Source: Sumerlaeia bacterium (GTDB taxonomy: Bacteria > Sumerlaeota > Sumerlaeia > SLMS01 > JAHLLQ01). Taken from it: 50,841 bases of DNA. The position numbers and the translations under genes were made by a program. Shown piece after piece: positions 5,674 through 48,131 of this stretch. The DNA lies in contig JAVJSW010000072.1 of assembly GCA_040219255.1 (NCBI GenBank), positions 1-50,841 on the forward strand. Reading direction: 5' to 3'. The stretch's first letter is position 1, and every line of letters begins with the position of its first letter. Under the pieces are notes generated by a model. The model saw only the letters and a program-made list of their open reading frames with translations. It was not told where the DNA came from and ran no database searches.

Positions 5674-5688
5674 TTGAGCACGGCCCGG

Positions 5689-8972: not shown

Positions 8973-9016
8973 AAAAAAAACGAAGCCTCCCCAGACCGGG
9001 GTCCAGAGAGGCTTCG
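8973..9016 (-). terminator. Rho-independent terminator of sdhCAB
   Basis: CGAAGCCTC...GAGGCTTCG stem followed on the minus strand by T8. Confidence 0.8.
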
Positions 9017-9044
9017 CACGATCAATTGTCGATGAGGCTCCAGC

Positions 9045-9833
9045 TTAGAAGCGGAACATCTTCTTGAAGGCCGCCTTGGTCACCTGGCCGCCGATGGCGG
9101 CGATGGCGTCGGTCAGCGGGATGAACTTCGGGCAAACCTTCACGCAATTCTGCGCGTTCCCGCAATCCACCACGCCGCCCGGCCCCATCAACTCCTCCAG
9201 ACGGTCGTCCTTCAGGTGGGCGCCGATCGGGTTCTCGTTGAACAGGTAGGCCTGGCCAATGGCGTGGGCGCCGATAAAGGCGTTGTCCTCGTGGTATTGG
9301 GGGCAGGCTTCCAGGCAGCAACCGCAGGTCATGCACTGGGCGTAGGCGTACATGTCCTGCTGTTTTTCGGGGCTGATGCGGGGGCCCGCACCCATTTCGT
9401 AGGTTCCGTCCAGCGGCACCCAGGCCTTCACCCGCTTGAGCGCCTCGAACATCCGGGTGCGGTCCACGACCAGGTCGCGAATCACCGGGAACTTCGTGAA
9501 GGGCTTCAACTCGATCGGCTGCTCCAGGTGATCGACCAGCGTCACGCAGGCTTGCCGCGGCACGCCGTTGATGTTCATCGAGCAGACGCCACAGACGCAT
9601 TCCAGACAGCCCGATTCCCAGGAGGGAGGGGTGACCTTCTTGCCGGCGGAGTTGACCGGATTGAGGCGGATTTCCATCAGAACCGAGATGACGTTCATGT
9701 TGGGCTGGTAAGGCACCTCGAACTCGTCCCAGTAGGGCGCGTCGTCAGGCCCCTTCTGACGCATCACGCGAACGGAGATGGTATTTTTCTCTTTGCTGGC
9801 GAGGGCCGCCGGCTTTTCTTCTGTCTTAAACAT
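9045..9833 (-). CDS. sdhB: Succinate dehydrogenase/fumarate reductase iron-sulfur subunit
   Basis: CLECVCGVC, CMTCGCCLEAC and CGNAQNCVKVCP cluster motifs; AAGGA RBS. Confidence 0.96.
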   Translation of the reverse strand: MFKTEEKPAALASKEKNTISVRVMRQKGPDDAPYWDEFEVPYQPNMNVISVLMEIRLNPVNSAGKKVTPPSWESGCLECVCGVCSMNINGVPRQACVTLVDHLEQPIELKPFTKFPVIRDLVVDRTRMFEALKRVKAWVPLDGTYEMGAGPRISPEKQQDMYAYAQCMTCGCCLEACPQYHEDNAFIGAHAIGQAYLFNENPIGAHLKDDRLEELMGPGGVVDCGNAQNCVKVCPKFIPLTDAIAAIGGQVTKAAFKKMFRF

Positions 9834-9865
9834 TCGTGGCCAATCCTTTCGTGCCGTCCCGTGAA

Positions 9866-11923
9866 TTACTTGTAAATCCGCGGCCGCGGGGGTTCGAAGG
9901 TCATCACCACATCGCGGTACTCGATGTCGGGCATAGCGCCCGCCTTGTAGGTCGCGATGGAGGACTTGTTCCAGACGCGCTGCGTTTCGACCCACTTCTT
10001 CATGTAGGCCAGGAACTCGGGAGAGACAGCCGTGTACGTTTCCGGCGGCGCGACAGCGGTGCCGCCTCCGCTGCCGGAACCGGCCACCATTTCCTTGCGC
10101 TTCGCCAGGTTCTTGAAGAGCACCGGGTTGGGCTGCGACGCATGCTCCTTATAGGTGACACCCTGCTTCTCTTCCAACTCCGTCACGAACTCCAGGTAGA
10201 TGTCCGTGTCCGCCGGATCGCCCAGCTTCTCCTTCTCCGGCTTGTCGAAGAAGTGATCGGGCTTGTAGTGAGCGCCGCGCGACTCGTCGCGCAGACGGGC
10301 ACCCTTGGCGATCGGCTTGGCCAGCTGGATCATGTCGTACAGCGAGCGCGCCATCTGGAACGTCTGGTTCACCGAGGAAACCGTGTCGTTCAGATCGATC
10401 TTCTCGTAGCGCTCTTCCAACTCCGTGATCTTCTCGAGCAGCGAGTCGAGCTGGTCGTTCTTGCGAACCACCGTGCAGTAGCGGGTCATCCAATCGCCCA
10501 GTTCGTTGTGCAACGCGAAGACGTTCTCCGAGCCACCCTTCGAGTCCAGGAGGCGCTTGTTAATCTCGCGCTGGCGCTTGACTTCGCCTTCGTAAACGCT
10601 CTCGGGCGCGTCGGCGGGATTCGCCTTGGTGTATTCCACCATGCGGATGCCCGCTTCCAGACCGCCGTAAATGCACGAAAGCAGCGAATTGGCGCCCAGA
10701 CGATTCGAACCGTGGTATTGGAAATCGACCTCGCCCGCGGCGAAGCAGCCCGGGATGTTCGTCATCTGGAACAGTTCGGTGCCGTTGTCCTGGGGCGCGA
10801 CCCACAGGCCACCCATGGAATAGTGCATGCCGGGGAAAATCAGCATCGGTTCCTTGATCGGATCGACGCCGACGAACTGGCGGTAGATTTCGAACACGCC
10901 GCCCAGTTTCCGCTCGAGGATTTCCGCCTGCTGTCCGCTCTTGGCCGGCGTGATGTCCAGGTAAACCTGATTCTTGCCGCCAGCGCCCATGCCCTGGTTG
11001 ACGCAAATATCGAAGATTTCCCGCGTCGCCACGTCGCGAGGCACCAGGTTGCCGTACTTCGGATACTTGCGCTCCAGGAAGTAATCGCGATCGTTGTCGG
11101 GAATCTCGGTGGCCTTGCGCTTGTCGCCTTTGGTCTTCGGCACCCAGACACGTCCGCCTTCACCGCGGACCGATTCGCTGATCAGGCGCAGCTTGTCCGC
11201 CCCCGGGATCGAGGTCGGATGCACCTGAATGAACTCGCCGTTGCCGTACTTCACGCCCTGCTGGTAAACCCGGCTGGCGGCGGCGCCGGTGTTGATCACC
11301 GAGTTGGTGCTCTTACCGAACACCATGCCCGGGCCGCCCGTCGCCAGACACACCGCGCCCGCCTTGAAGACATGCACCGTGCGGTCCCAGACGTTCATCG
11401 CGGTGATGCCTTTGCACCGCCCCGCTTCGTCGATCACCAAGCTCAGGAATTCCCAATACTCGTACTTCTCCACCTTGCCTTCGTTCTCGAACCGGCGCAC
11501 TTGCTCGTCGAGCGCGTAGAGAAGCTGCTGGCCCGTGGTGGCGCCACTGTAAGCCGTGCGGTGATGCAGCGTTCCGCCGAAGCGGCGGAAGTCCAAAAAG
11601 CCTTCCAGCGTGCGGTTGAACGGAACGCCCATGCGGTCGAGCAGGTCGATGATGGCCGGCGCCTTATGCGCCATGCCCACCACGGGGGGCTGATCGTTGA
11701 GGTACTCGCCGCCGAACAGCGTGTCCGAGGCGTGGATGTCGGGGTGGTCGTTTTCCCCTTTCATATTCTTGGCGGCGTTGATGCCGCCCTGCGCGCAAAC
11801 CGAGTGGCTGCGCTTGACCGGAACGAGGCTGAAGAGATCGACCGGCAAACCGGCCTCGGCGATGCGAATGGCGGCTGCCAGACCTGCAAGTCCGCCTCCG
11901 ACGACAATGATTCGATTCGACAT
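9866..11923 (-). CDS. sdhA: Succinate dehydrogenase/fumarate reductase flavoprotein
   Basis: GGGLAG, RSHSVCAQGG covalent-FAD motif, HYSMGG, RLGANSL and ESRGAHY. Confidence 0.97.
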   Translation of the reverse strand: MSNRIIVVGGGLAGLAAAIRIAEAGLPVDLFSLVPVKRSHSVCAQGGINAAKNMKGENDHPDIHASDTLFGGEYLNDQPPVVGMAHKAPAIIDLLDRMGVPFNRTLEGFLDFRRFGGTLHHRTAYSGATTGQQLLYALDEQVRRFENEGKVEKYEYWEFLSLVIDEAGRCKGITAMNVWDRTVHVFKAGAVCLATGGPGMVFGKSTNSVINTGAAASRVYQQGVKYGNGEFIQVHPTSIPGADKLRLISESVRGEGGRVWVPKTKGDKRKATEIPDNDRDYFLERKYPKYGNLVPRDVATREIFDICVNQGMGAGGKNQVYLDITPAKSGQQAEILERKLGGVFEIYRQFVGVDPIKEPMLIFPGMHYSMGGLWVAPQDNGTELFQMTNIPGCFAAGEVDFQYHGSNRLGANSLLSCIYGGLEAGIRMVEYTKANPADAPESVYEGEVKRQREINKRLLDSKGGSENVFALHNELGDWMTRYCTVVRKNDQLDSLLEKITELEERYEKIDLNDTVSSVNQTFQMARSLYDMIQLAKPIAKGARLRDESRGAHYKPDHFFDKPEKEKLGDPADTDIYLEFVTELEEKQGVTYKEHASQPNPVLFKNLAKRKEMVAGSGSGGGTAVAPPETYTAVSPEFLAYMKKWVETQRVWNKSSIATYKAGAMPDIEYRDVVMTFEPPRPRIYK

Positions 11924-11962
11924 GATAAGAGAGGGCTCCTTCCCTGTGGGTGGCGGCTTTGC

Positions 11963-12694
11963 TTACTTCACAATCTGTTCGTTACCAGTTGGCGGAAAGC
12001 TTTCCAACTGACCGTGGTCCAAAACCACCACGTCCGCCGGGTGAATCAGGAAGCCCACGATCGACGCCACCAGCATCCCCGTCAGCATCAATCCAACCCC
12101 CAAAGCGATCCAAGCCATCACCTTCTGGCTCTTCGGCCCCACCGTCAGGCCCCACGTCATGCAGAACGTGCACAACCCGTTGGCGAAGTGGAAGATCACC
12201 GACAGGCCGCCCAGCAGGTACACCAGCACCCAGAAGACGCCCGTCAGGCCCCGGAACAGATCCGCCATGTACTGCCAGTAAACGCCCACCGACTCGATGT
12301 GCTCGTAGGCGCGGTGCGGAGCGTCCCACAACCGCAGCCAGCCGGCATGGTAGGCGATGAACAGGAGCGCGGCCCAACCGCTCCACCGCTGCGCCGTGTA
12401 GGCCCAGTTGCGCCCGTACTTCATTTCCGTGCTGAGGAGATTGTTACGGCTCTGCAGCGCGATGACGATGCCCAGGATGATGTGGAGGGAGAGGGGGATG
12501 AAGATGAGGAGCGCTTCCACGAAAGGAAGCAGCGGGCCCATGGAGTGGATCAGATTGACCTTCTCGATGAACGCCTCCTGGCCAAAAATGGCCATGGAGT
12601 TCGTCGTCAAGTGTCCGAAGAGAAACACCCCGAGGGGGATGACGCCGAGAAGCGAGTGCAGTCGGCGCAGGAGGAAATACTGTAGGGGATTCAT
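11963..12694 (-). CDS. sdhC: Succinate dehydrogenase cytochrome b558 subunit (single-subunit Bacillus type)
   Basis: LRRLHSLLGVIPLG, QRWSG and FHFANGL...WG motifs; about five hydrophobic segments; first gene of the operon. Confidence 0.93.
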   Translation of the reverse strand: MNPLQYFLLRRLHSLLGVIPLGVFLFGHLTTNSMAIFGQEAFIEKVNLIHSMGPLLPFVEALLIFIPLSLHIILGIVIALQSRNNLLSTEMKYGRNWAYTAQRWSGWAALLFIAYHAGWLRLWDAPHRAYEHIESVGVYWQYMADLFRGLTGVFWVLVYLLGGLSVIFHFANGLCTFCMTWGLTVGPKSQKVMAWIALGVGLMLTGMLVASIVGFLIHPADVVVLDHGQLESFPPTGNEQIVK

Positions 12695-12702
12695 GGAGAG
12701 AC

Positions 12703-12722
12703 TTTGTGAATCCTTTCACAAA
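12703..12722. promoter_or_regulatory. Rex-type operator
   Basis: TTTGTGAA-TCCT-TTCACAAA matches the Rex consensus TTGTGAA-N4-TTCACAA exactly, 8 nt upstream of the sdhC ATG. Confidence 0.8.
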
Positions 12723-13401
12723 CTCGTGGCTTGGAAGAGAGAGAGCGATGGGAAGTGGAAAGCTCCCGCCTCATGGTCAGGAAATCGAAATCGAATCGGC
12801 CGCTCTCTAACCGCGCGTCAGGGAAGCACTGGCGCCGGGAAATCGTCAAGCCTTTCGGCGGCGCTTGCGGGTCATTGCCAACCCCGGTCAAATCAGCGGA
12901 GTGGGCAGCGATCGGAAGAGTATCGGAGAATGCGGACTCGATATTCAAGGGCAACCGCGCGGGGCGGGGCGGCGGCACTTTCGGCGGGGGGAGACCCGGC
13001 GGCCATGACACGCTCCGTTCCCGGGACTTGGGCGCCCGGGTACGCTCTTCGCTTAACGGGGTTGTATGCACGGTGGAGCGGGAAAGAGAGCAGAAAACAC
13101 TTTCCCCCCTTAGCAAGGACTTTATCATTGGGGACCACGCAAAGCTGCCGTCGCGAGACGATTTGAATTGCGGCCCCATGCACTCGGAAAGGAGGAATCG
13201 CGACAAACGATCTGCCGCCTTCGTGCACAGGGCGTCAGTATCGCTGACTGAGCCGTTCCCCGTTGGGTTTGGCGAGGTTGTGCTATTCCGGCGGATTTCT
13301 GTTTCCGCCACCCTTTTTTATCTTGAACTGGTAGTAACAGAAGAGGTTTTCGTGGGGCGGTTCCCTCACGAGACCACTTCATCATCAAAAGGAGTTCCGT
13401 A

Positions 13402-15060
13402 ATGACTCACGCAAGGTTGACGCAAACCTTCTGTGCCCTTTTCCTCGGCGCGATCATCGGCTTGACCGGATGTAAATCGTCGGGTGTTGAGGCCGAAACA
13501 AATCCCCATCCCGAGGTGCCTCGCGCCTCACAGCCCGCTCCGACCGCCGCACCGGCCCCCACGACCGCTCCCTCCACGGGCGCGGGCGACCGCCGCATGC
13601 CCGCCGGAGAGCGCCCCATGGCGCGTCCCGCCGGCGCCGGTCAGCAGACCGTCTCCCTGGCTCTGCCCACGGGCGATCCTTCCACTGGTATCCTCCTCAT
13701 CGAGAAAACCGGCCCGACGCAAGTCATCGCCGGCGCTCCCTTTGAGTACACCATCACGGCCACCAACCTGACCAGCGACCTCGAGCTTCGTAACGTCGTC
13801 GTCCGCGACATCCTGCCGGGCAACGTCACCGTCAGCAGCGCCGCCGACGCCCGCGTCTCCGGTAACTCGCTTGAGTGGTCCGTCGGCACGCTGGCTCCCG
13901 GCGCCTCCGACTCCATCGTCGTCACCGGCACCGCTGCCGGTACCGGCACCGTCGTCATCTGCGCCACCGCCGAATACGACGTCTTCCTCTGCCTGACCTT
14001 CGAGACGGTCCAGCCTCAGCTGGTCCTGACCAAGGAAGCGCCCCGTGAAGTGCTCTCCTGCGATCCGATCGAGTACGTCCTGATCGTCGAGAACACCGGC
14101 AGCGGCACCGCCTCCAACGTGCGCATCACCGATCGTCTGCCCTCGGGCCTGACGACCGACGGTTCCACCACGTTCGACCTGGGCGATATCGCCCCCGGTC
14201 AGAGCGAGCGCGTGACGCTGACCGCCATGGCCAGCAACAAGGGCTCCTACACGAACAGCGCGACCGTGACGGCCGACGGCGGCCTTTCCGCCACCGCCGA
14301 AACGACCACCATCGTTCGTAAGCCTGATCTGGAAGTCACCAAGACAGCTCCGGGCCGCGCCTTCATCGACAGCCGCTTCAACTACCGCATCACCGTCCGT
14401 AACACGGGTGACGCTCCGGCCGCCGATACGGTCCTGCGCGACACCCTGCCAGCCGGCATGACCGCCGACAGCGCCAGCGACGGCGGCCAGATCTCTGGCA
14501 GCACCGTCACCTGGAACCTCGGCACGTTGAACCCCGGCGACTCGCGCGATGTCACCATCACGGTCCAGGGCGCCAACGCCGGCATGTACACCAACACCGC
14601 CGAAGTCACCGCCTACTGCGCCGAAGCCACCGACCGCACCCGCTCCTCCGCCGACACCGAACTGTTCGGCAAGGAAGCGATCCTGCTCGAAGTGGTCGAC
14701 ACGGATTACGATCCGGTTCTCGTGGGCCAGGAGGGCCGTTACATCATCACGGTCACCAACCAGGGCTCGAAGACCGACACGAACATCCGCATCGTCGCCA
14801 CCCTTGACGGTATGGACTTCCTGCGCGCCGAAGGCCCCAGTGGCCAGCCGAGCGTGAGTGGCCGGACCATCACCTTCCCGCCGCTGGCCGAACTGGCTCC
14901 GGGTAACAAGGTCGTCTACACGGTCTTTGGCGAGGCTGTCGAAACCGGCGGCCGCCGCTTCCGGATCGAACTGACCTCCGCCGCGACCGGCTCCAACCCG
15001 GTTATCGAAACCGAATCCACGCACATCTACGACGAGTCGTCCTTCGGCGACTCCAAGTAA
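13402..15060 (+). CDS. DUF11-repeat lipoprotein, OmcB-like
   Basis: Lipobox LTGC, Pro/Ala linker, repeated YxIxVxNxG...V.DxLP Ig-like units, and LLEVVDTDYDPVLVG...YIITVTNQGS resembling the chlamydial OmcB C-terminal unit; AAGGAG RBS. Confidence 0.85.
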   Translation: MTHARLTQTFCALFLGAIIGLTGCKSSGVEAETNPHPEVPRASQPAPTAAPAPTTAPSTGAGDRRMPAGERPMARPAGAGQQTVSLALPTGDPSTGILLIEKTGPTQVIAGAPFEYTITATNLTSDLELRNVVVRDILPGNVTVSSAADARVSGNSLEWSVGTLAPGASDSIVVTGTAAGTGTVVICATAEYDVFLCLTFETVQPQLVLTKEAPREVLSCDPIEYVLIVENTGSGTASNVRITDRLPSGLTTDGSTTFDLGDIAPGQSERVTLTAMASNKGSYTNSATVTADGGLSATAETTTIVRKPDLEVTKTAPGRAFIDSRFNYRITVRNTGDAPAADTVLRDTLPAGMTADSASDGGQISGSTVTWNLGTLNPGDSRDVTITVQGANAGMYTNTAEVTAYCAEATDRTRSSADTELFGKEAILLEVVDTDYDPVLVGQEGRYIITVTNQGSKTDTNIRIVATLDGMDFLRAEGPSGQPSVSGRTITFPPLAELAPGNKVVYTVFGEAVETGGRRFRIELTSAATGSNPVIETESTHIYDESSFGDSK

Positions 15061-32705: not shown

Positions 32706-35693
32706 TCATGGGGCGATGTGCAGAAAGGTCGTGTGATAGAGCAGGTCGTCGTTCGTGACGTCGGAAGACTGCGGCGGCACCCAGGTTCCGCCACGGAGTC
32801 GGACCCAGACGCGGTTTCCGGTGGTGTCCCGCCAGTAGGTTTCTCCCACCGATTCGATCACGGCCTCCAGGCTTGCGACTTCGCTATAGACGGTGAAGGC
32901 CCCGTTTCCCGGATAGCGCAGATAGACATTCGGGTCGATGGACCCATCGAATTGAACACCCACCACCACGGTGTCGTCTTCCGTCATCAGGTTCTCCACC
33001 GTCATGCGGACATTGGTGGGATGGGTGATGCCAAAGGGATCGCCGGGGAAATCGAGTTCGTAGAGACCGGTCGGATGGGCGGCGAAGTCGCGCATGTGCT
33101 GGAGGAACATGCCCGGTTGATCGCCCGCGCCGACGCGCCAAGTGGCCACTTCGTTCATGTCCAGGTCGAGCCGCCGCACCTCGATCGCCATCAGGTCGTC
33201 GAAGTCCATGTTCTGGGGCGGCGTCCCACCCTGACCGTGAAGAACGAAGCCATGGAAGCCATAGAAGGGGCCCGGCACGCTGACGCCGCCGGACTCGGCG
33301 GGCGTTGGCGCGACTTCCGTCACGGTCAGCCCATGGATCAGGAACGGCGTATTGTAAACGAACCATTGTCCCGCCGGCCCCCACTGGCCGTCCGGATCCC
33401 AGAGGGCACTGGCCAGTGTGTACCAACTGGCGAACTCCTGATAACTGAACTGATTGCTGAATCGGGCCGTCAGTTTGTATCCCGGATGGGAGTTATAAAC
33501 CACGTTGCCGATATTTCGGGTGGTGCCTTTCTCCACGGCACGGGTGTAGTAATCGTCCGTTGCGAAGACGCCGCTCCGCTTGCCCGTGACCAGCGGGAAA
33601 TTCAGCGCCAGGTTGTGCTGGATGTCGAAGGTGCTGTGGTACGTGGCGAAGGCTGAAATGGTCGGATCGCCAGCGTCGTTGGGGCGGAACCCGCCGCTGT
33701 CGTTCAAGCTGGTGCCGACCACGAGACAGCGCTGGATGATGCCGTCAATGCCGGAACCGGCGAAGAAGCGCTGGCAATTGTCGGCGGACACGCACTCGGT
33801 GTTGGTGGGCACGGTGGCGCGGTCCCAGATGCCGCTGTTGCCGCATTTCCAGACCTGATAGCGATTCAGGTGGAAGCGCTCGATCGCGGTAAACCCGATG
33901 CCGGATGGAGAATCGGTGGACCAGTACTGGAGCTGCTGGACCAGCCCGCCATGATCGCTGCCGGGGTCAAAGGCCACCTCCGGCCCATCGAGCATGATGC
34001 CCTCGTTTCGTGTCGTGTGGGCCGTGTTATCGTCGAACACACCAAAGGTCACGCGGTTGGGCACGACGGCGACTTCGTTGCAGAGGCCTTGGGGCGTCGG
34101 TGGAAAGGCCAGCCAATAACCAAAGGCCTGGCAATCGGCAGCGATATTGTTGGTCAGGACATTGTCCGGGTTGCTGATCCAGAACCCGCTCGACCCGGTG
34201 GCCAGGCCAAACAGGTCGTTTCGCTCGTGAATCCTCAGCGCATTGGCTGGCGTGGGGTTACGGACTTTCAGGACCACGTTGCCGTCGAAGGTGTTGCGGC
34301 GCTCGACGGCGTCCTCCGTGAACACGCCATGGCCGAGCACATCGAATACGATGTTGTCTTCGACGAGAAGCCCGTTCGTGCCGTGGATTACGAGGCCGCG
34401 GTTGGCGGATTGGTTGACGACGGAGCGGCGGATGTATTCGCCCGACAGATCCGCCAGCATGGACGGCCCGGAGCCGCTGTAGCTGCGCAGGTGCTGGTGA
34501 TAGGGATATCGCCCCAGGCGCCCGGCCTGGCCGGCGCGGCGGAATTCCACGCCGTCCACCGTGGCGAAGGATGTGGGTCCCATCACCATGACGTGGACGC
34601 CGTAGCCGCTGTTCTGCCACAGGGTGTCGTCGGGGGCCTGGATGACAATGTTGCGGGTCAGGTTCGCCACCACGGCGCGCTGGTCCAGCACCATCGGGGT
34701 ACCGGCCATTTCCGGGGTCAGGACGATGGACTCGTCGGGCGTCAGGCTCATGCCGGTGGCCGTGGGATATTGCAGAAGCCCCCAGCGGAAGGTCGCCAGC
34801 GTCTCGGCGGTCGTGATCTGCTGGCCCGCGACGGCGGTCAGGGTCAGGCGCTCGGTCTCGGAAACGCCGTAGAAGTCCGTCGGCGCGATGGCGATCTGAT
34901 CGCCGCTGGACCAGTCCGGGGTCTCGATCAGGTCAAAGGTGCTGGCGCCCGCGTTGGCGTGGGCTCCGATCTTGGTCCAGAGGACCTCCGGCGGCGCACC
35001 ATGCAGCGACAGCGTGCCGCCCATGACCATGATGCCGCGATTCACCGTTCCCATGCCCATGATGTTGGCGTCCGGGTTGTCGCCCGTAAGCGTCAGGACG
35101 GCGCTGTGGGTGAAGGGGTGGGCCTCCGTGCCGATTTGCAGCGTCCCGTGGAGCATGATCCAGTCGGCGGTAAGTTCGAGGTCCTGATCGTCGAAGACGA
35201 GCGAGCCCTCGATCATCAGCCCGTTGAGGTCCGGGGGCGATTCATCCAGCAGAACGTTCATCGCATGGCCGATGGTGACCACATCGCCGGCCTGCGGCTT
35301 GGTGCCGCCCCAGGTCGCCGGGTCGGACCAGAGCAGACACCCGGCGCAGGAGCCGTCGTCGGCGAGGACGCGGACCACCGCGTTCGGCAGGTGAATGCCG
35401 GGCAGGTCCTGGCTGATGTCCCAGACGATTTCCTTGCCGGTGCCGGGGGAAATGGCGGCGCCGATGTCGCCGCCGACGCTTTCCGGGATGATGGTGAAGG
35501 TGGCGCCACCATCGGCGGAGACTTCCAGCGAGACCTCGCAATCGCCCTGCGGCGAGGCAAGATCGTAGGTCACGACGACTTCGCTGCCGCCGGTTTCGGA
35601 GGGTTGCTGCGCGAATTGCACGTTGGAGACAACGGGCGCCGCCATCACCGCCGAGGCGGCGAGGGTGAGGAGGAACGCGAGAAGGGTTTTCAT
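32706..35693 (-). CDS. Secreted G8-domain beta-helix protein (TMEM2/fibrocystin-like) with N-terminal Ig-like module
   Basis: Signal peptide MKTLLAFLL...VMA; WSDPATWGG G8 start, LTRNIVIQ, GRLGRYPYHQH, RGLVIHGTN and FWISNPDN. Confidence 0.85.
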   Translation of the reverse strand: MKTLLAFLLTLAASAVMAAPVVSNVQFAQQPSETGGSEVVVTYDLASPQGDCEVSLEVSADGGATFTIIPESVGGDIGAAISPGTGKEIVWDISQDLPGIHLPNAVVRVLADDGSCAGCLLWSDPATWGGTKPQAGDVVTIGHAMNVLLDESPPDLNGLMIEGSLVFDDQDLELTADWIMLHGTLQIGTEAHPFTHSAVLTLTGDNPDANIMGMGTVNRGIMVMGGTLSLHGAPPEVLWTKIGAHANAGASTFDLIETPDWSSGDQIAIAPTDFYGVSETERLTLTAVAGQQITTAETLATFRWGLLQYPTATGMSLTPDESIVLTPEMAGTPMVLDQRAVVANLTRNIVIQAPDDTLWQNSGYGVHVMVMGPTSFATVDGVEFRRAGQAGRLGRYPYHQHLRSYSGSGPSMLADLSGEYIRRSVVNQSANRGLVIHGTNGLLVEDNIVFDVLGHGVFTEDAVERRNTFDGNVVLKVRNPTPANALRIHERNDLFGLATGSSGFWISNPDNVLTNNIAADCQAFGYWLAFPPTPQGLCNEVAVVPNRVTFGVFDDNTAHTTRNEGIMLDGPEVAFDPGSDHGGLVQQLQYWSTDSPSGIGFTAIERFHLNRYQVWKCGNSGIWDRATVPTNTECVSADNCQRFFAGSGIDGIIQRCLVVGTSLNDSGGFRPNDAGDPTISAFATYHSTFDIQHNLALNFPLVTGKRSGVFATDDYYTRAVEKGTTRNIGNVVYNSHPGYKLTARFSNQFSYQEFASWYTLASALWDPDGQWGPAGQWFVYNTPFLIHGLTVTEVAPTPAESGGVSVPGPFYGFHGFVLHGQGGTPPQNMDFDDLMAIEVRRLDLDMNEVATWRVGAGDQPGMFLQHMRDFAAHPTGLYELDFPGDPFGITHPTNVRMTVENLMTEDDTVVVGVQFDGSIDPNVYLRYPGNGAFTVYSEVASLEAVIESVGETYWRDTTGNRVWVRLRGGTWVPPQSSDVTNDDLLYHTTFLHIAP

Positions 35694-36169
35694 TCGAGGA
35701 CACTCCAATCCGCGACGGAGGCCCCGGCGGCAAAGGACACGGCGCCATCGCCGGTGCCCGCCATGCCCGAAGGCTCGGCGGAGCGGTTGCCGAGCAGATC
35801 GACGGCGACCAATTCGAAGTAATACATGCCGTGGTTGGCCGGTTCCGAGCCGGGGGGCGTGAAGGCGAACTGGCCGCCGCCGCCGGTTAGGAACAGCCCG
35901 GAATAGGTCCAGGGTTGCGAGTCGGTGCGGAACCACAGCTCGACCGCGCCAAGGCCTGTCAGCGGATCCGCCGCCCCGGAATAGGGCAGCAGGATGGGCG
36001 AGGCGGGAGCCGAGGGCGGAGTAGTCAGCGTGCCGGGTTCAGGCGCGAGCGTCTCGAGCGGACCAGCCGCCGAATCGCCCGAACCCACGGCGGCCAAAGC
36101 CGCCACGGCGGACGAGGCCACCAGGCCCCAAAGCGCCAACCGCAAGAGAGGGAAAGAAGATCGAATCAT
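35690..36169 (-). CDS. Small secreted Ig/FN3-like protein ending ASVADWSVLE
   Basis: Hydrophobic signal peptide; GLGAVELWFR and YYFELVAVDLLGN strand motifs; its TGA overlaps the ATG of the G8 gene. Confidence 0.75.
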   Translation of the reverse strand: MIRSSFPLLRLALWGLVASSAVAALAAVGSGDSAAGPLETLAPEPGTLTTPPSAPASPILLPYSGAADPLTGLGAVELWFRTDSQPWTYSGLFLTGGGGQFAFTPPGSEPANHGMYYFELVAVDLLGNRSAEPSGMAGTGDGAVSFAAGASVADWSVLE

Positions 36170-36388
36170 AGAAGCACCTGTATTATCGACCGGCCAAACG
36201 ATTATCGAGGGAGGGACCGGTCTAAGTATCGCCTGCAATCCTGAGGGCTCCCGCCGCTTTGCGCAACTGACCGAAAGGTCAGGTCGAAGCCGGGGACCTG
36301 ACCTTTCGGGTAGTTGTGCGCGCATCCGGCTCGATGCAACGTGGGTGATTATTCCGTTATTCTCTTCTAACAAAGGAACGATTCGCCA

Positions 36389-37351
36389 ATGAAGGTACCG
36401 TTTGTGCTCCCCATCCTTGCCGCCATGACCCTCGGGACGTCCGCCACACTGCTGGCGGCGGACCCGCTGCAAGCCCTGAACGATGAATTCGAGACCGATT
36501 CCCTCACCGATTGGTCGCGCGTCAAAGACGCGGAAATGTGGCCCAACGAGCAGTTGGAAGTCCTCGACATCGACGTCACGCGAGACGGTTGGATGACGAT
36601 GGTGCCGTACACGAACGGCTGGTACGAAGACTATCGCGGGCCCCTCGTCTTCAAGGAAGTGACAGGTGACTTCGTCGTCACGACCCGCGTCCAGGCAACG
36701 AACCGCGCTGGCACCGGCGCTCCGGAGCGCAGCTATTCCCTGGCCGGGCTCATGATCCGCGCCCCCCGGGCCATTACGCCCGCCACCTGGACAGCGGGGG
36801 GAGAGAAGTATTCCTTCCTCTCCATCGGATCGGCAAACACGCCGGGCACTTTCCAGTACGAAGTGAAGTCGACCTCCAACGAGGACGAACTCCCTGAATA
36901 CTCGCGCCTCGACATCAGCGCCAGCGATTGCTCCTGCGGCGATACGCTGCTGCAAACCGCCCGCCTCGGCCAGTATGTCATCCAGCTCGCCAAGACCGCG
37001 ACCGGCGACTGGCGTATTGTGAACCGCTATCGGCGGCCCGATCTGCCGGCCGTTCTCCAGGTCGGCTTCGTCACTTATACCGATTGGCCGAACGTGGAAA
37101 TCACCCCCGTCGAAACCCACAACACCACGACTCTGACCGAGGTCTTAGGTCAGCCCGGCGTACCCACCCAGCCTGACCTGCGCGCTCAGTTCGAGTACAT
37201 TCGCTTCCTGACGCCCGAAGTCCCTCCCGTCTTTGCGGGCCTGGACTTGGCCAACGCGGCGGAGGTCTCCGATGCGGAGTTGCTTTCCTTCCTCGGCGAA
37301 AACGCCGTGAGCGCCTTCGCTTCCGTGGGCGATTTCTGGATGGCGTTCTAG
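36389..37351 (+). CDS. Secreted protein, probable concanavalin-like beta-sandwich, ending ASVGDFWMAF
   Basis: Signal peptide; LNDEF, GPLVFKEVTGDF, AGLMIR and LQVG motifs typical of DUF1349/ConA-like domains. Confidence 0.7.
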   Translation: MKVPFVLPILAAMTLGTSATLLAADPLQALNDEFETDSLTDWSRVKDAEMWPNEQLEVLDIDVTRDGWMTMVPYTNGWYEDYRGPLVFKEVTGDFVVTTRVQATNRAGTGAPERSYSLAGLMIRAPRAITPATWTAGGEKYSFLSIGSANTPGTFQYEVKSTSNEDELPEYSRLDISASDCSCGDTLLQTARLGQYVIQLAKTATGDWRIVNRYRRPDLPAVLQVGFVTYTDWPNVEITPVETHNTTTLTEVLGQPGVPTQPDLRAQFEYIRFLTPEVPPVFAGLDLANAAEVSDAELLSFLGENAVSAFASVGDFWMAF

Positions 37352-37404
37352 GGGACGTTTGGGTCTTTTGGGAGAAGCTTCCCGGACAAGGACCCCGCCG
37401 CCCG

Positions 37405-38319
37405 ATGTCTTCCCAACGCGCCTGGATCGAATCGCTTGTCCGCTGCATCCCCTCTGGCCTCGTGTTCGTCCGGCGGGACGGCTGCATCCAGTGGTCGAAT
37501 GAGCACTTCGCCCTGATGGTGGGCGAACGGGGCGGGGTGAAGGGCCGGCTCTTCAGTGAGCTGGTTCCCGAATGGGAGGGGATGCCCGAGGACCTGCCCT
37601 ATACCCCGAAAATCGAGATGGTGTCGCCGAGGCGAGCGACGCTGACGGATCCCGAGGGTGAACCGTTCACCGTGACGCTTTGGATCTCGGCCTGCGCGAC
37701 TGGGGCCGGGGCCGACTGGGCGATTTTTGTGGAAGACCTGCGCACCGTGGATGGCCTGCGGCGCCAGCTCGAAGCCCGCGAGCAAAGCCATTCCTTCCTC
37801 AAAGCAAGCGCCTCCGACCTGATCCTGCGCACCGGCGCGGATTGGACCGTGACCTGGGGCAACGAGGCGGCGGAAGCCTACTTCAAAGCCGGCGACGCCC
37901 TGCCGGAAAGCCTCGCGCCGGCCTGTTGGGCTGAGCTGTCGGCTTGCCTGGAACGCCTGGCGGGGGGCGAGCGCCGCGCCGAAGTGGTTCTCGAAAGCGC
38001 CCCCGCCCGGACCCCGGCGTTTCTGCTGCGGGGCCTGATGCGGCGCGTGGCCGAGGACGACGGCGCGTTCGCCGGGGTCAGCCTGGTTCTGCGCGACGAC
38101 TCGGAAAAGCGCCGCCTCGCCGCCCTCGCCTCCCGCCTCGGCCTCAGCCCCCGCGAGGAGGAAGTCGCCGAGTATCTGCTGCAAGGCTACTCAAACCTCA
38201 ACATCGCCACGATCCTCGGTCTCAGCGAAAGTGGCGTCAAATTCCACATCCGCAACATCCTGAGCCGCGCCGGAGCGAACACACGGACGGAGTTGATGGC
38301 GATGGCGCTGAGCGAGTGA
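37405..38319 (+). CDS. PAS-domain LuxR-family transcriptional regulator
   Basis: Two PAS-like segments; C-terminal LSPREEEVAEYLLQGYSNLNIATILGLSESGVKFHIRNI HTH. Confidence 0.88.
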   Translation: MSSQRAWIESLVRCIPSGLVFVRRDGCIQWSNEHFALMVGERGGVKGRLFSELVPEWEGMPEDLPYTPKIEMVSPRRATLTDPEGEPFTVTLWISACATGAGADWAIFVEDLRTVDGLRRQLEAREQSHSFLKASASDLILRTGADWTVTWGNEAAEAYFKAGDALPESLAPACWAELSACLERLAGGERRAEVVLESAPARTPAFLLRGLMRRVAEDDGAFAGVSLVLRDDSEKRRLAALASRLGLSPREEEVAEYLLQGYSNLNIATILGLSESGVKFHIRNILSRAGANTRTELMAMALSE

Positions 38320-38372
38320 GGGGAGCGTGCGGTTCACAGCCAAAGCCACTCAACTTCAGTAAATACAATCCT

Positions 38373-38403
38373 CTCTGTGTCCTCAGTGCCTCGGTGGTGA
38401 ATT
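38373..38403 (-). repeat. 31-bp CACAGAG repeat, copy 3
   Basis: Reverse complement AATTCACCACCGAGGCACTGAGGACACAGAG; 27/31 identical to copy 1. Confidence 0.8.
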
Positions 38404-38421
38404 CTTGAAATGAATGCGCTT

Positions 38422-41400
38422 TCAGGGTCGCCTGTCGCCCTTCAGGCCTTCCGTGAAGAAACCCTCTCCCCGATCCCAGGGAACCGCGAGCCAGGTTCGG
38501 AGCACGGCGTCCTGGCCTGCTGTGATCAACGTCCGCCCATCGGCCATCAGGGCCAGGTCCAGCACGCCATAGCGATGATCCGCGAAGGTCAGCAGTTCGA
38601 CGCCGGTGTCGGCCTCGAAAACGCGCAGCAGCGAATCGGCGCAGGCGGTCAGCACCCGCGCGCCATCGGGTGTCAAGACGGCGGCGTTGACGGCCCCGGC
38701 GTGGGTGCCGCGATAGACGGTTACGCTTTCCGGGTTCGAGATGTTCCAGAGCCGGGCGGTTTCGTCGGCCGAAGCGCTGAGGAACCGGCGCTCCTTCGCG
38801 ACCCAGACGAGGTCGCGGATGGGGCCGCTGTGGCCCTCGAAGAGGCGCATGGGCTCGCTGCTTTCCACGTCGAGGAGCGTGATGGTGCCGTCCTCCGCCC
38901 CCGCGAGAAGCCTTGCGCCCGAGCCATCCAGCGCCAGCGCTGTCCATCGGCCCTTGGTCCTGGCCAGTTCGTTGTAAACGTTCGGCTCGAAGGCATCACC
39001 TCGCAGCAAACGGCCATCCTCTGTGGCGAACAGGAGGGCGAGGCCATCGGCGGACAGTTCGGTGGCGGTGAAGGGCGAATCGGTGCGCCAGGTTACGACC
39101 GATTCCGTGCGCGCCGGAAAGGTCCGGCAGTGGACCGCCGCGCCATCGCGGCGCAGCACCAGGGCGGTGCGTCCGTCCGCCGAGACTTTGACATCGATGG
39201 ACTTGCTCTCGACCCAGAACTGGCGCGGCTGGCCTGGAACCCCGCCCGTCATGTCCCAAAGTCCCGCGACGCCGCTCTGGTGGGCGGTAGCCAGAACGGG
39301 GGCGGCGGATGCCACATCGAGCCCGAAAATGCGATCCGGATAGCGGGGGAGCGCCACCTGATGCGCGGGCTGCCCCGGCGCCCAATAAGCCAGGCCACCG
39401 TCCGCGCCGCAGGCCAGAAAGCCCTCGCCCGCCAACGCGAACGCCGCCACGGCGCGGCTGTCCACGCCGATCGGGACGCGTTCCCAATCCATCCGCCAGT
39501 CGATGCGCTCGATCGCGTTGCGGGTTCGGGTATAGAGGAAGGCGCCGCCGGGCGAGAGTACCAGCTCGTTCACGATGCCCGCCGGGTGGGTGAAGCGCCG
39601 CGCCACTTCCCACGTGGCGGGATCGTAGAGGCGGATGGTGGTGCTGGCGGTGGTCAGAAGCAGCGTGCCGTCTTCGCGCCAGGCGGCCGCCGTGACGGCG
39701 AATTCGTCGGGCGTCAGGACGATTTCCGGCGCCGCCCCACCGGCGTGGTGGATGATCGCGCGGGGGTCGCGGGCGGCCTGCTGGATGCCCGGCTCCACGG
39801 CCCAGGTCACGAACCGAGCGCCATCGGGCGCCCAAGCGATGCCGCGCACGGGGGCGTCGTGGCGGTTGGGGCTTTCCAGGACTTCGCTGGACTCGGCGTG
39901 GCCTTGGAAAATGCGGCCGTCCTGGGTTCCGGCGGCGAAAAGATCCCCCTGCGCCCCCAGCGCCGTGATCGGCGAATCGGTCCGCAGGATTTCGCGAATG
40001 GCGGAACTGTCATGCGGGACGGCGTAAACGGCCCGTTCACTCGCCGCGAAGGGTGCCTCGCCCGACCCCGCCAGCCGCAGCAGCGGCTCCTGGGCGACGC
40101 GCACCTTCCAGGCGGGGGCCTTGGGGCCGAAGGCCGCCAGATACCCGGTGCCGCTCGCCGCGAGAACGGTTTCGCCGGGGCCGGCCATCACGGCGGTCCA
40201 GGCCCCCGCGTCCTCGGTCAGCACCTCGCCCGTCGCCGCGTCCAGGATCGCCAACCGCCCATCATCGGCCCCGATGGCGCCGATAATCCCGCCCGCTTCG
40301 GAGAGCGCGAAGGTCGCGTAGCGCTCGTCCCGCGGCCTCAGAAGCCGTTCCTCCGGCATGGCCGCGCTCGCCAGATAGCCCCACTCCCAGCCGCGCCGGG
40401 CCTGCGGCGTCTGGCGCAGGGCGTCGCGGGCGGCGGCGAAACGCTGGTTTTCGATGTGCGACTGGGCCGCTTGCAGGCTCGCGCGGGCCAGTTCCCGCTG
40501 CGCCTGATCCAGCGCCCGCTCGGTGTTGCGCCGCTCCGCCACGGCCGTTTCGAAGGCGATAAACAGTACCACCGACGCAACCGCCGCAACCGCCAGCAGC
40601 GACGCCAACGCCACCAGCGCGTAGCGCCGGGCGCGGACCCGCTCGCGTTCGCGGGCGGCGCGCTGGTCCTGGGCCTCGCGCAGGGCCGCCAGCAAGGCCT
40701 CGCGGCGTTCGTCCTGGGCGATGCGATGGGCGATCAACCCCGCCAGCTCCAGGTCCCCGGCGGCGATGGCGCGGGTACTGTGGGCCGCCAGCACGTCGTC
40801 GCGCAGCGCCATCAGGCCCTCGATCTCCGGGTCCAGGGCCCGCGCCCGATCCAGATCGCCCTCGATGGCCGCCAATTCCGCGTAGCCGCTCGCGGGCACG
40901 GCCGTGAAGCGCTCGCTGCATTCGGCCAGCAGGCGCTTCGCCTCCTGCGTCTGGCGCATCCCGCCGAGGAAGTCCTCGATGGCGAGGCGGAATTCCTCGG
41001 CCGAAGCGAACCGCGCCGGGGGAGCGGTGCTCAGCGCGCGGTCGATCAGGCGGCGCAGCGGCGCGGGGATGTCCGGCCCCAGCGGCCGGCGGCGGTTCTG
41101 GCGCGCGGCGTCCATCGATTGGGTGGGCGAGTCGCCCGGGTGCGGCGGCTGGCCCGTGGCGATGTGAAACGCCGTCGCGCCCAGCAGGTACACGTCCGTG
41201 GCGACACCGATGGCGGCGGCGTCGGCCAGCGCCTGCTCCGGCGCCATATAGCCCGGCGTGCCCAGGGGCCGGTCGATGTCGGCGACACAGCGCCCGCGCT
41301 CGCGATTGCCATCGAGCCGCGCCGCGATGCCCCAATCCATCAGGAACACCTCGCCGAAACCGCCCGCGATCACCTGTGAAGGCTTCAAATCCAGATGCAC

Positions 41401-42046: not shown

Positions 42047-44710
42047 CTAATTGGAGAAGAAGTCGGCGATATCGACCACGAAGTCCCCGTTGCGGTTGTC
42101 GGCGGGGGCGGCTGTCCGCAGGCCCAGGAGCACATCGACCACATTGGGGGTTGGGGTGGGCGTCGGTGTGGAGGTGGCCGTGGGCGATGGTGTCGGAGTT
42201 GGGGTTGCCGTCAGCGTTGGCGTGGGCGTGCCCGTAGGTGTCGCCGTTGGGGTCGTGGTGGGTGTTGCTGTCGGGGTCGCCGTTGGAGTGGGGGTGGGGG
42301 TCGCCGTCGGTGTTGGCGTGGGTGTTGGAGTCGCCGTAGCGGTCGGTGTGGCTGTGGGCGTCGGTGTCGGCGTAGGTGTCGTTGTCGCTGTCGGCGTAGG
42401 GGATGGAGTCGGAGTTGGCGAAGGAGTCGGCGTCGCCGTCACGTCCGGTATTACCTCTGTCTCGAAGCTGCCACGGTCCACGATGGTTCCGACGATCCGG
42501 GGGAATCCGGGACCGCGCTGATCGTCGAAGGGAGCGTTGATGTCATCGCTTCCGAAAGCGAAAAACTGGGCGACCAAAGCATTCGAGCCGCTGTTGATGG
42601 CCCGGCTCGTGTCGGCGAGGTTGTGGGTGGGGGTGAAGCCTCCGTTGTCGGCCAGCGGCAGGACGCCAGTGGGTTCGGGGAAAAACTCGGAGCCGACGAT
42701 GTCGTTGTTCTGGCCGGAGAGAAGTCCGCTGCTGCCGCCGGTGCGAACGATGTTATGCCCCAAGCTACTGATCGCGCCGTTCACATCTCCTAAGTTGGGG
42801 ATCGCTCCCGCCGTGTTGGAGGTAATGAGCGTATTGCCGATGCGCACCTGCGTGTCGGCCCCTTCGATGGAGATGCCGCCGCCGAAGGACAGCGCGGAAT
42901 TGAACGCCAGGGTGCAGTTGATGACGGTGACTTGGGCGCGGGATTCGACGGCCAGCGCGCCGCCGGAGTTGCCGGCACTGCCGTTGCCCGTCAGGGTGCT
43001 ATTGTTGAGGGTCAGCGAGGAATCGGGCCCGGCCCAGATGGCGCCCCCGGCGTCGTTGATGACGGAGAGGAAATCGCTGGTGTTCTCGGTGAATAAGCAG
43101 CTTTGGACAAGCGCGCTCGTGTGGTCCCGCAAGGCCAGCCCTCCGCCGAAATTGGCCACGCCGTCTCTCAGGTCACAGAGATTCAAAGCCAGCCGAGCAT
43201 TGTGGGCGCCGTGTTCGATGGCGCCTCCGTGCGTGACACCCGTTGTATTCGGTCGCAGTCGGAAGCCGACGAGGCTGCAATCGCCCCCGCGCATCAGGCG
43301 GCTGGTGACGAGGCGGGGGCCGTTGATGACGAGATCCTCTCCCATGCCGATAAACGGGCTGCGCAAGACAAGGGGCCGGCTGGGATCGAGGACGTGAGTT
43401 CCGCTTATGGTGACGAGAGTGGCTTGTGGCGCGTTCTCGAGCATCGCGCGCAGATTGTAGTCGCCCGCCAGCGCGTCCGCCAGGTCATCGCCCAAGGCGG
43501 TCAGCACGGGGTCCACGGCTTGACGTTCGTAGGCGCCGATATCCACCCGCTTGGACTCCCCCGACACGCGGTGAAATCCCCGGGCGTCCCCGGCCCCGAT
43601 ATTGGCGAAATCGGTGACGGAGAGCAGGCCGTTGTCTCCCGCGTCGATGGCGGGACTGGCGGGTGCGCCGGGATCAAGGGCGTGGGTGAAAACCTGGCCG
43701 CCGTTCTTGGCGAGAGGGACAAGGCCAGGATCGAGGGGGGATGCCACGGTTCCCACCTGGTCGCCGAGGACGCCGTCCGTGAAGGGCCCCGCCGGGTCGC
43801 CGATGCCGATGAGGTTGTGGCCAATGCTGATAAAGCCGGCTCCGGCGTTGGCGGCCGGGGGAACATCGGGATAATCCCCTGGCGACTGATTAGCCGCGAT
43901 GATCGTGTTGCCAATGCGTGCCATGGCATTACTCGTCAGCACCAGGGCCGAACCCAATTCCACGCTCGATTCGTTACCCGTCAACGTTCCGTTGATCAGA
44001 TCCATCGTCGCACCGTTGGCCAAACCCAAGATGAGCGCGCTGCCAGAGGCGGCCACATTGTCGGAGAAGGTGGTATTGATGATCCGTATGGGATGCACCG
44101 GGGCGTCCTGTCCGGCTAAGATGGCGATGGCGCCCCCGGAAGAGGAGCTGCGGTTGCTATGGAACGTCGAGCTTTCGATGGCGAGGGGCGCGACAATGTT
44201 GCTGAGGTAGAGGGCGCCACCTAGCTGTTCGGACGCATTGCCGGTGAACTCGCACCAGCGGATGGTGATCGGTTGGAAGACCGACTGGGCTGAGAGGACG
44301 CTGCCGATTCCGGCGTTGTCGAAATTGCGGAAGGTCACGCCTTCGAACAAAAGCGGGGCGTCGTTGAGGGACAAGACGTCGAACAGCAGGCCGGTAAAAC
44401 TGCCATCGACGATGGTCTGGCCAGCGCCGTTGCCCAGTAGAGAGATACCGTGGGGCAAGGGGATGGAGGCGGTGACGACGATGGGTTGAGCGTCGAGGTC
44501 CGGGTGGAACCGGATCGAATCGCCGGGCGAACTGGCGCCGATCGCTTCCCGCAGCGAAAAGCCGTTCTCCGCCCCGCCGTCGTCTTGGTCTTCGGTGGTG
44601 GTGACGGTGAAGGTGGCTGCGTGAGAGATAAGGGGACTGACGGCCATTAGGGCCAGCAGAAGGACGATCGTTCCCTTACGGAACGGATGGCGGTAAAATC
44701 GGGCTGTCAT
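42047..44710 (-). CDS. Large secreted beta-helix protein (CSLREA/choice-of-anchor Q-like) with PT linker and dockerin-like tail
   Basis: Signal ending [21 protein letters not shown]/FxxN repeats, two LAxNGG...AI..G...D.RG..R...VD.G..E modules, a (TP)n linker, and [14 protein letters not shown]. Confidence 0.85.
42146..42440 (-). repeat. Thr/Pro/Ala low-complexity linker (~98 codons)
   Basis: [12 protein letters not shown]... encoded with varied synonymous codons. Confidence 0.9.
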
Positions 44711-47555: not shown

Positions 47556-48131
47556 ATGAAACGCAACGCCTTCACGCTCATCGAACTCCTCGTCGTGGTC
47601 GCCGTGATCACCATTCTGGCTGCCATCGCCGTCCCCAACTTCCTCGAGGCGCAGACCCGCTCGAAAGTCAGCAAGGCCCAGGAGCACCTGCGCATCGTCG
47701 CGCTGGGGCTGGCGGCGTATTCCGTGGACAACGGCCGCCTGCCCAGTCAGGGCAACGTCGTCGATCCCGCCGCGCGCCGCAACGCCCTCAACCCGCTGAC
47801 CACGCCCATTGCCTACATCTCGACGATGATCATGGATCCCTTCGCGCCCAAGGACGCGCCGATCACCGGCGATGTGTACTATGTGAACCTGAAGGAGGTG
47901 ACCGGCCTGGTGGATTTTGGACGGGAGTTCAACCTCTACGTCATCGGCAGCGTCGCCCCCGACGGCTCGGACAATTTCACGCAGGTGCTGACGGACCTGG
48001 CCGATCCCGCTACCCAAGGCATGATCAGCACCCGCGGCGTGTACGACCCCACCAACGGCACCGTCAGCCCCGGCGACCTCTGCCGAACGCGATGCGGGGT
48101 ATACGGGGGGTATTCGCAGGCGCAGTTTTAG
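47556..48131 (+). CDS. Prepilin-type N-terminal cleavage/methylation protein
   Basis: MKRNA|FTLIELLVVVAVITILAAIAVPNFLEAQTRSK; AAGGA RBS. Confidence 0.92.
   Translation: MKRNAFTLIELLVVVAVITILAAIAVPNFLEAQTRSKVSKAQEHLRIVALGLAAYSVDNGRLPSQGNVVDPAARRNALNPLTTPIAYISTMIMDPFAPKDAPITGDVYYVNLKEVTGLVDFGREFNLYVIGSVAPDGSDNFTQVLTDLADPATQGMISTRGVYDPTNGTVSPGDLCRTRCGVYGGYSQAQF

Follow-up and report, generated by a model that had tools for sequence, protein, structure and literature searches.

The choice of the proteins that leave the periplasm, or are kept on the cell surface, is an open question in type-II-like secretion systems and in candidate phyla without a type IX secretion system (T9SS). Among the closest described devices are the T9SS type A C-terminal domain (CTD; TIGR04183/PF18962, also FlgD_ig PF13860), a folded immunoglobulin (Ig)-like domain of 70-100 residues that is read by PorV/SprA and removed by PorU, and the tripartite signals (LPXTG/sortase, PEP-CTERM/exosortase, IPTL-CTERM and GlyGly-CTERM/rhombosortase), which combine a short C-terminal signature with a membrane helix, a basic end and a dedicated transpeptidase or protease. 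Passages of two further reports describe how a short flexible N-terminal peptide of TcpF (Vibrio cholerae) or CofJ (enterotoxigenic Escherichia coli) docks on a minor pilin, the type-IVb filament then carrying the protein through the secretin (PMC9565799, PMC10120004). Here we analyse a stretch of 50,841 nucleotides (henceforth the window) from a Sumerlaeia bacterium (assembly GCA_040219255.1, contig JAVJSW010000072.1, forward strand), in which two neighbouring genes encode exported proteins that end in a short tryptophan-centred peptide (the W tail). This tail recurs at the C-termini of unrelated exported proteins of the same genome, stands in place of known anchors in the homologues of two protein families, and probably serves as a sorting or docking tag.

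The smaller of the two genes (35690-36169, minus strand) encodes a 159-aa protein whose last residues, ASVADWSVLE (tail 1, 35693-35722), are followed by TGA at 35690-35692; the other (36389-37351, plus strand), divergently transcribed across a spacer of 219 bp, encodes a 320-aa protein that ends in ASVGDFWMAF (tail 2, 37319-37348) before TAG at 37349-37351 (both genes as given by their open reading frames (ORFs) and translations). An initial annotation, made from the letters of the window, had placed these tails on two non-homologous signal-peptide proteins, and in this it was right: each N-terminus is hydrophobic and signal-peptide-like, and BLASTP finds no similarity between the two proteins beyond the tail (best E 0.92). 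The motif it derived (ASVxD followed by an aromatic residue) describes tail 1, but in tail 2 the register is off by one, the anchor is W and not F, and the real motif is wider. Tail 1 is a perfect fit to the genome-wide consensus given below (V at W-3, D at W-1, V at W+2, L at W+3, terminal E), and tail 2 is a variant with W at -4 (W-M-A-F-end) and one extra residue (F) between D and W. Since the nearest homologues of the 320-aa protein end in DLW or DHW forms (GDLWLTY, GDLWITY, PDLWRVH and ADHWQVF), W at -4 is the conserved anchor of tail 2.

The window is one contig (C72) of a genome (G000; here and below, G, C, L and f numbers are our own handles for genomes, contigs, loci and families) of 83 contigs and 5.35 Mb, with 63.6% G+C and 92% completeness. 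Genes were called by a simple codon log-odds model (3,965 genes, 85% of the DNA covered), and the 3,817 called proteins longer than 80 aa form the base of the tail statistics. Among these, W occurs 94 times at position -4 and 87 times at -5, compared with 33-65 times at the other positions from -1 to -12, and the excess sits in the proteins with a signal-peptide-like start (47 at -4 and 44 at -5, as against 9-26 elsewhere). Three classes of ends (Phi denoting a hydrophobic residue and $ the C-terminus) exceed the numbers expected from their internal frequency, namely W..Phi[DEQN]$ (38 vs 3.0), W.Phi[YF]$ (29 vs 2.0) and W.Phi[KRH]$ (16 vs 2.4), and V.[DENSQ]W followed by 3-5 residues and the end occurs 33 times. 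The union of these fixed regular-expression classes, which constitutes our catalogue, comprises 98 of the 3,817 proteins (~10 expected), and the same expressions return 0-9 matches once the last 8-40 residues have been trimmed. A scan with the pattern proposed by the initial annotation (here [SA][SA]V.[DEN][WFY]) gave a concordant picture, the pattern occurring 15 times within 20 residues of the C-terminus and 21 times over 1.4 million internal positions.

The consensus, drawn from the 88 tail proteins that pass a signal-peptide test at any nearby start, reads [AS]-[SA]-V-x-[GDN]-W-x-[LV]-[YFL]-(E/D)-end and is 9-10 residues long. Its counts are A 27 and S 18 at W-5, S 21 and A 10 at W-4, V 38 at W-3, G 26, D 17 and N 8 at W-1, L 28 and V 20 at W+2, Y 31, F 16 and L 12 at W+3, and stop 47, E 23 and D 7 at W+4. 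Put differently, 47 of the 88 proteins stop right after the Y/F/L-type position and 30 add a terminal E or D; W stands at -4 in 47 proteins, at -5 in 35 and at -6 in 6, so that the length of exactly ten residues stressed at first carries no special meaning.

A signal-peptide-like stretch was found at the called start of 65 of the 98 tail proteins (27% for the proteome) and at any nearby start in 88 of them (42.5% for the proteome; odds ratio 12.5, p 4e-23), in agreement with the enrichment that the initial annotation had proposed to look for. Four of the ten misses visibly possess a signal peptide, while the others look cytoplasmic and are probably chance matches. Lipobox-like signals are nearly absent (1/98, vs 91 of the 963 other signal-peptide-like proteins; p 0.002). 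By similarity the 98 proteins fall into 67 components over their full length and 83 over their last 120 residues. The Pfam families recognised among the 60 that were scanned (up to 1,700 aa, strict-motif ones first; threshold 1e-4) are S8 subtilases, alpha-amylase, GH3, endonuclease I, polysaccharide deacetylase, PhoD, FG-GAP/VCBS, LTD (lamin-tail-domain), multihaem cytochromes and DUF4832/4874, and 29 of the 60 matched no family. As a control we drew 40 proteins at random from 587 tail-less ones with a signal-peptide-like start (150-1,200 aa, no further membrane helix); it includes periplasmic types (solute-binding protein, peptidyl-prolyl isomerase, amidase, NamZ and thioredoxin-like), and none of these families was encountered among the 60 scanned tail proteins. 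The tail singles out some of the likely extracytoplasmic enzymes and adhesins; export in general cannot depend on it, given that many likely exoenzymes of the genome do without it.

The initial annotation had also linked similar ends to Sumerlaeota, and this affiliation holds: the best named matches of the window's SdhA are exclusively Candidatus Sumerlaeota/Sumerlaeia proteins (full-length alignments at 64-69% identity), whereas those of the next group (Acidobacteriota and others) cover only ~80% of the query. Across 75 Sumerlaeota genomes (25 of them from the window's order), a DNA pattern for V-x-[DN]-W-x-x-Phi-[DE]-stop gave 128 matches in 44 genomes (6 of the 128 end in TGG instead of a stop), versus 16 for the reversed control pattern. 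The window's order accounts for 88 matches (23 of 25 genomes positive, 12 matches in G000) and family f10 for 16 (4/4 genomes positive); in family f16 one genome of seven is positive, and in families f6-f9 none of five. In 400 kb sampled from the complete genome G069 of family f16 (214 called proteins), there was one tail-like end, on a protein without a signal peptide, where ~5.5 would be expected at the G000 rate, and the 51 signal-peptide-like proteins of this sample showed no evident alternative end in common. The tail is thereby abundant in one part of the phylum and rare in others.

These figures bear on the explanation that the tails reflect chance, a compositional effect of GC-rich DNA, or a DNA cassette copied onto gene ends. 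In its favour, the calls are crude and ORF-based, and GC-rich genomes hold many spurious ORFs; against it, the excess over internal frequency is 10- to 15-fold and confined to positions -4 to -6, it collapses upon end trimming, the reversed pattern finds an eighth of the matches, and the tail is conserved in database homologues that come from other assemblies. Moreover, synonymous tail codons differ between copies, which points to selection on the peptide rather than on the DNA. We consider an origin by chance, composition or cassette copying scarcely credible.

In the 159-aa protein, for which neither Pfam nor NCBIfam has a family, the signal peptide precedes a single Ig-like beta-sandwich (residues ~60-125), from which a variable Gly/Thr linker leads to the tail. 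Relatives of this protein are present in 14 of the 25 genomes of the window's order (with at least 7 copies in G052), and those in families f2 and f4 end in ...V-x-D-W-x-x-L-D-Q. Across an alignment of 12 members, V153 and W156 never change and at least 90% of the sequences retain D155 and L159, while the Gly/Thr linker varies. A second conserved stretch (ALSGSGDSA.G.LDTVAP.PG) stands right after the signal peptide and is conserved as well as the tail. AlphaFold2 (AF2) places the strands of this protein at 60-125, with a predicted local distance difference test score (pLDDT) of 73-86, as compared to ~57-60 for the last 20 residues. The 320-aa protein, likewise without a Pfam family, is modelled as a concanavalin-A-like (DUF1349-like) beta-sandwich with a mean pLDDT of 90.9 for the whole model and 53 for the last 10 residues (Foldseek top matches 3O12 and 3MEP, next legume lectins and GH43 C-terminal domains). 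In both window proteins, the tail is thus predicted to stay outside the fold.

Immediately downstream of the small gene, whose stop codon overlaps the start codon of its neighbour (ATGA), lies the gene for a 995-aa exported protein (32706-35693, minus strand) with a G8 domain (PF10162, 4.6e-29) and a CEMIP-type beta-helix (PF24606 CEMIP_beta-hel, 1.6e-54). This protein has no W tail and ends in ...FLHIAP; a Pro at -1, as in this case, is found in 137 of the 963 signal-peptide-like tail-less proteins of G000 (2.4-fold enrichment). In genomes G019 and G013, a different large gene stands downstream of the orthologous small tailed gene, and the end motif of its product may be formylglycine-generating-enzyme (FGE)-like. 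Couplings of this kind between a small tailed gene and the gene for a large untailed enzyme or other large product would suit a self-association or strand-donation peptide, one that inserts into the Ig-like domain of a neighbour or partner and so builds surface arrays or piggy-back complexes with no dedicated sorting machine. The multiplicity of small proteins built from signal peptide, module and tail (as in G052) would suit it too, as would the Ig-like or Fn3-like modules that many tails follow (in the small window protein, in the 115-aa module described below, and in FG-GAP proteins with ...AGNTE... domains). The tail nevertheless also follows unrelated last domains (concanavalin-A-like, alpha-amylase C domain, S8 proteases), and AF2 left it unpacked against its own domain; we regard strand donation as unlikely.

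The strongest functional clue is the positional equivalence of the tail to known anchors. A core that ends in ...VSDAELLSFLG is common to the 318 homologues of the 320-aa protein, and what comes after the core varies: a W tail (among others in named Sumerlaeia/Sumerlaeaceae proteins, ...ASVGGWELFGGE and ...ARVREWKEY), an F variant of it (...VPVELSAFSLE), nothing at all, an IPTL-like motif with membrane helix and basic end, a dockerin-like end, in some a FlgD_ig/T9SS-type domain (e.g. in a named Eisenbacteria protein), and in many an 80-aa domain ending in ...FYRAxSP. This family is present in 7 of the 75 phylum genomes, a distribution too patchy for a phylum marker, and a search of genome contigs with the 320-aa protein returned a single locus, in a Bacteroidia metagenome-assembled genome (40% identity). 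The second family is defined by a C-terminal module of 115 aa (W.T..E.DN.GF.VYR ... Y.LEDVD.SG..T.HGP), common to 8 tail proteins of G000 (e.g. at loci L004, L021, L022 and L031-L033), in which 12-25 variable residues separate it from the tail. The module has no match in Pfam, NCBIfam or the PDB sequences (PDB profile search, 0 at E<=1); in a search of 1.84 billion proteins, its profile retrieved 21,081 representative clusters at E<=1e-3 and 5,748 at E<=1e-10. The W tail ends 92 of the best 150 of the 21,081 clusters, in a ranking that leans toward tailed sequences because the profile included the tail. The other ends seen among these 150 are a membrane helix with a basic end, a classical T9SS-type domain, a dockerin-like end and a short basic one. 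The names retrieved for ten W-tailed module proteins are 'Candidatus Sumerlaeota bacterium' and 'bacterium' only. The module would seem to form a large 'pre-anchor' domain, absent from the catalogues, to which anchors of different kinds are attached, and one further tail follows a weak match to the choice-of-anchor D model (NF012200, E 0.0011, below its cut-off). In the homologues of both protein families, the tail is interchangeable with known anchors.

The T9SS-type domains that homologues in other phyla bear at this position might suggest that the tail is what remains of a CTD, cut down to the last strand and still recognised by a type IX system. Such a relic is highly improbable in view of the gene content of the phylum: PorV (PF19572) was detected in none of the 75 genomes (the Bacteroides thetaiotaomicron control being positive), and the TIGR04183 domain occurs at most once per genome, in 10 of the 75 (one in G000). 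The SprA models found no match in G000, a search that is uninformative since the controls were silent as well. Neither PF18962 nor PF13860 was matched in the 60 whole tail proteins scanned with Pfam, and NCBIfam, searched with the C-terminal 60 aa of 30 tails, returned no sorting signal at E<=1. On the same PorV and CTD counts we rejected the T9SS as the reader of the tail, and an exosortase likewise, as PF09721 was not found in G000 (at its completeness of 92%; the control was matched in 1 genome). No hydrophobic stretch follows the motif (the proteins end 3-5 residues past the Trp), and no LPXTG or Gly-Gly motif with a helix is present in the listed tails (no search was made for sortase or rhombosortase genes). 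Taken together, with no membrane helix, a length of 9-10 residues and no NCBIfam match, the tail fits none of PEP-CTERM, GlyGly-CTERM, LPXTG and the T9SS CTD, as the initial annotation had argued. Two further systems were set aside: type I secretion (RTX-type signals), on account of the 88 tail proteins with a signal-peptide-like start, and the beta-signal of the beta-barrel assembly machinery (BAM), on account of the soluble type of the carriers (S8, amylase, GH3, FG-GAP, LTD) and the position of the 320-aa protein's tail outside its sandwich fold.

From the position of the tail and the company it keeps, we infer a membrane-anchor-free C-terminal sorting or docking tag that is read by an envelope protein, and we hold this to be the probable function. 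In such a scheme the carriers would be exported by Sec through their N-terminal signal peptides; the tail, going by structure prediction, would remain a flexible peptide outside the folded domains; a candidate receptor in the envelope would bind the Trp together with the hydrophobic pair two and three residues further on; and this receptor would pass the protein across the outer membrane or retain it on the cell surface. The last step is suggested by the positional equivalence, the tail doing the job that falls elsewhere to T9SS CTDs, IPTL/PEP-type anchors or dockerins. G000 has 2 Omp85 genes, and with them an outer membrane, besides 8 secretin genes and one S41 protease. By analogy with TcpF/CofJ, the receptor might belong to a type-IV-filament or type-II-secretion-like apparatus, an assignment we offer as doubtful for now. 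Equally tentative is the wider proposition that the tail could be the substrate signal of a new route by which folded, Sec-exported proteins leave the periplasm or become fixed to the surface in diderms without T9SS or exosortase, possibly through docking on the pilins of a secretin/pseudopilin machinery.

The genomic surroundings of the tail genes were searched for such a receptor. Pilin-like genes are the only recurrent neighbours of the 98 tail genes, and weakly so: of ~40 in G000, which have a near-identical N-terminus (FTLIELLIVVAIIAILAAIAVPNFLEAQ) and frequently end in ...DPTNGT.S.GD..R (one lies in the window at 47556-48131, plus strand), 9 of 40 are within three genes of a tail gene and 6 of 40 directly adjoin one (2.0 expected). 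The order tail gene, then pilin-like gene is found on C43 of G000, C47 of G020 and C2 of G016, with gaps of ~38-39 nt. For the pilin-like protein encoded on C43 (residues 32-197), a predicted complex with the C-terminal 70 residues of the neighbouring tail protein scored 0.00 in a run without controls and is evidence neither way. The expansion of pilin-like and secretin genes spans the whole phylum, and as correlates of the tail both fail: secretins number 2-14 in all 75 genomes and are numerous in the tail-poor f16, and pilin-like paralogues range from 12 to at least 44 in all 75 and are fewest in the tail-rich f10.

The C43 locus (35260-40381; L072 2952-8385) introduces another candidate, for there the tail gene (...SAASVTHWELYQ), the 39-nt gap and the pilin-like gene are followed by a gene for a 992-aa exported peptidase of PD40-PA-M28-PDZ architecture. 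This peptidase was found in 15 of the 75 genomes, all in tail-bearing families (f1, f2, f4, f10 and f11). Its position and distribution would accord with the tail being recognised by a periplasmic enzyme that processes C-termini or exerts quality control, such as a PDZ-bearing peptidase; the PDZ domains of the periplasm classically bind hydrophobic or aromatic C-termini, and the two main tail classes differ mainly by one terminal acidic residue (...DWSLFE and ...DWSLF), so that trimming the final E/D would convert the W-x-x-Phi-E into the W-x-Phi-Y/F form. It is at odds with the tail-rich genomes G016 (9 strict matches), G019 and G020 (5 each), where the peptidase was not found and for which it was dismissed as a universal reader, and with the S41 tail-specific protease of G000, whose single copy is an ordinary number. 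Relatives also tolerate extra residues (...WELFGGE, ...WRLLGDE, ...WMVLDQ), a poor fit to a carboxylate read in fixed register, and processing would leave unexplained why homologues carry anchors or sorting domains at the equivalent place. We judge it rather unlikely that processing is what the tail is for.

An elaborate neighbourhood was encountered on C33 of G000 (601-13587; locus L144), in which a tail gene is accompanied by genes for a TPR protein, a TonB-dependent-receptor-like barrel, a POTRA/Omp85 protein, DUF3450, two ExbB-like proteins, ExbD and TonB. The pairing of an Omp85 with a TonB system is unusual in itself. As a reader, this second Omp85 was discarded: clear orthologues (45-52% identity) are present in 4 other genomes, 13 of the 75 have a match at E<=1e-60, and there is no link to the tail.

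Several points weigh against a sorting tag. The sorting function is one that we infer from where the tail is placed and what carries it, and the search that the initial annotation had recommended, for genes co-occurring with the tail across the 75 genomes, yielded no reader: among secretins, pilin-like genes, the PDZ peptidase and the second Omp85, none tracks the distribution of the tail. Tail genes do not lie close to one another more often than by chance (5 pairs within two genes, 4.7 expected). The tail-less control, besides its periplasmic types, contains two alpha-amylases, esterase and GDSL enzymes, a GHL10 enzyme, an FG-GAP protein and a serpin. Our regular expressions overlook some real tails, such as that of one control protein (...SVEGWKQF, locus L141), and Pfam showed that they had also let false positives into the catalogue (a radical-SAM protein, hydantoinase B, a GspG pseudopilin and a TolB-like protein). 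The gene caller and the signal-peptide rule are crude, the C-termini being nonetheless fixed by stop codons, and the bias of the module ranking mentioned above belongs here as well. Of the lineage-specific secretion or surface-sorting signal postulated in the initial annotation, what stands is a recurrent, lineage-restricted motif on exported proteins of unrelated folds; its sorting role is still a matter of interpretation, and the hunt for its machinery came up empty. With these points counted, we retain the sorting or docking tag as the reading that best accounts for the positional equivalence.

Other features of the window adjoin or complement the tailed genes. A regulator with PAS and LuxR-type domains (37405-38319, plus strand) lies next to them, and in genome G053 (locus L064, 349-1320, minus strand) a regulator with a near-identical C-terminal end stands beside a relative of the small tailed protein; this may be a case of conserved local regulation. 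Further along, an 887-aa exported beta-helix/PMP-repeat protein (42047-44710, minus strand) has a dockerin- or EF-hand-like end, i.e. a different C-terminal device.

A 9-residue tag of this kind marks ~2.5% of the proteome, mostly hydrolases and adhesin-like proteins, and outlines from sequence alone which proteins may make up the secretome or surfaceome of an uncultured phylum that degrades chitin and other polymers. Its uneven spread within the phylum enables a phylogenetic-profile search for the reader, and a synthetic tail peptide could be used as bait. To our knowledge, no general linear signal has been recognised for type II secretion; should the secretin/pseudopilin route prove true, the tail would be the first such signal for a type-II-like pathway. 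If its function is confirmed, the tag merits an annotation model of its own, considering that neither NCBIfam nor Pfam gives the tested tails a sorting-signal name. In the full texts covered (subscription journals and supplements being outside the scope), the literature on C-terminal sorting or secretion in Sumerlaeota and on Trp sorting tails held no earlier description of it.

As for the systems introduced at the beginning, the W tail has several traits in common with the T9SS CTD: both occupy the extreme C-terminus of Sec-exported enzymes and adhesins, occur on unrelated folds, amount to a few per cent of the proteome, and take the equivalent position in two protein families. They differ in build, the CTD being a folded domain with its own reading and cleavage proteins and the W tail a peptide of 9-10 residues that is predicted to be flexible. 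With the tripartite signals it shares a short C-terminal signature on many unrelated exported proteins of one lineage, and it departs from them in having no helix. The BAM beta-signal and the PDZ ligands of DegS/DegP/Prc resemble it in placing aromatic or hydrophobic residues within the last four positions, at a free C-terminus. In contrast to the beta-signal, the tail lacks an alternating hydrophobic pattern and is borne by soluble enzymes and beta-sandwich proteins; signals of the BAM type are also not known to have an extra terminal E or D. As far as the passages on TcpF and CofJ go, their signals match the proposed role of the tail in being short, flexible, terminal peptides on Sec-exported proteins; the differences are that each of them stands at the N-terminus, has a single substrate and comes from a pilus operon, whereas the W tail is C-terminal, is carried by ~90 proteins, and would bind its receptor in a manner that we only propose.

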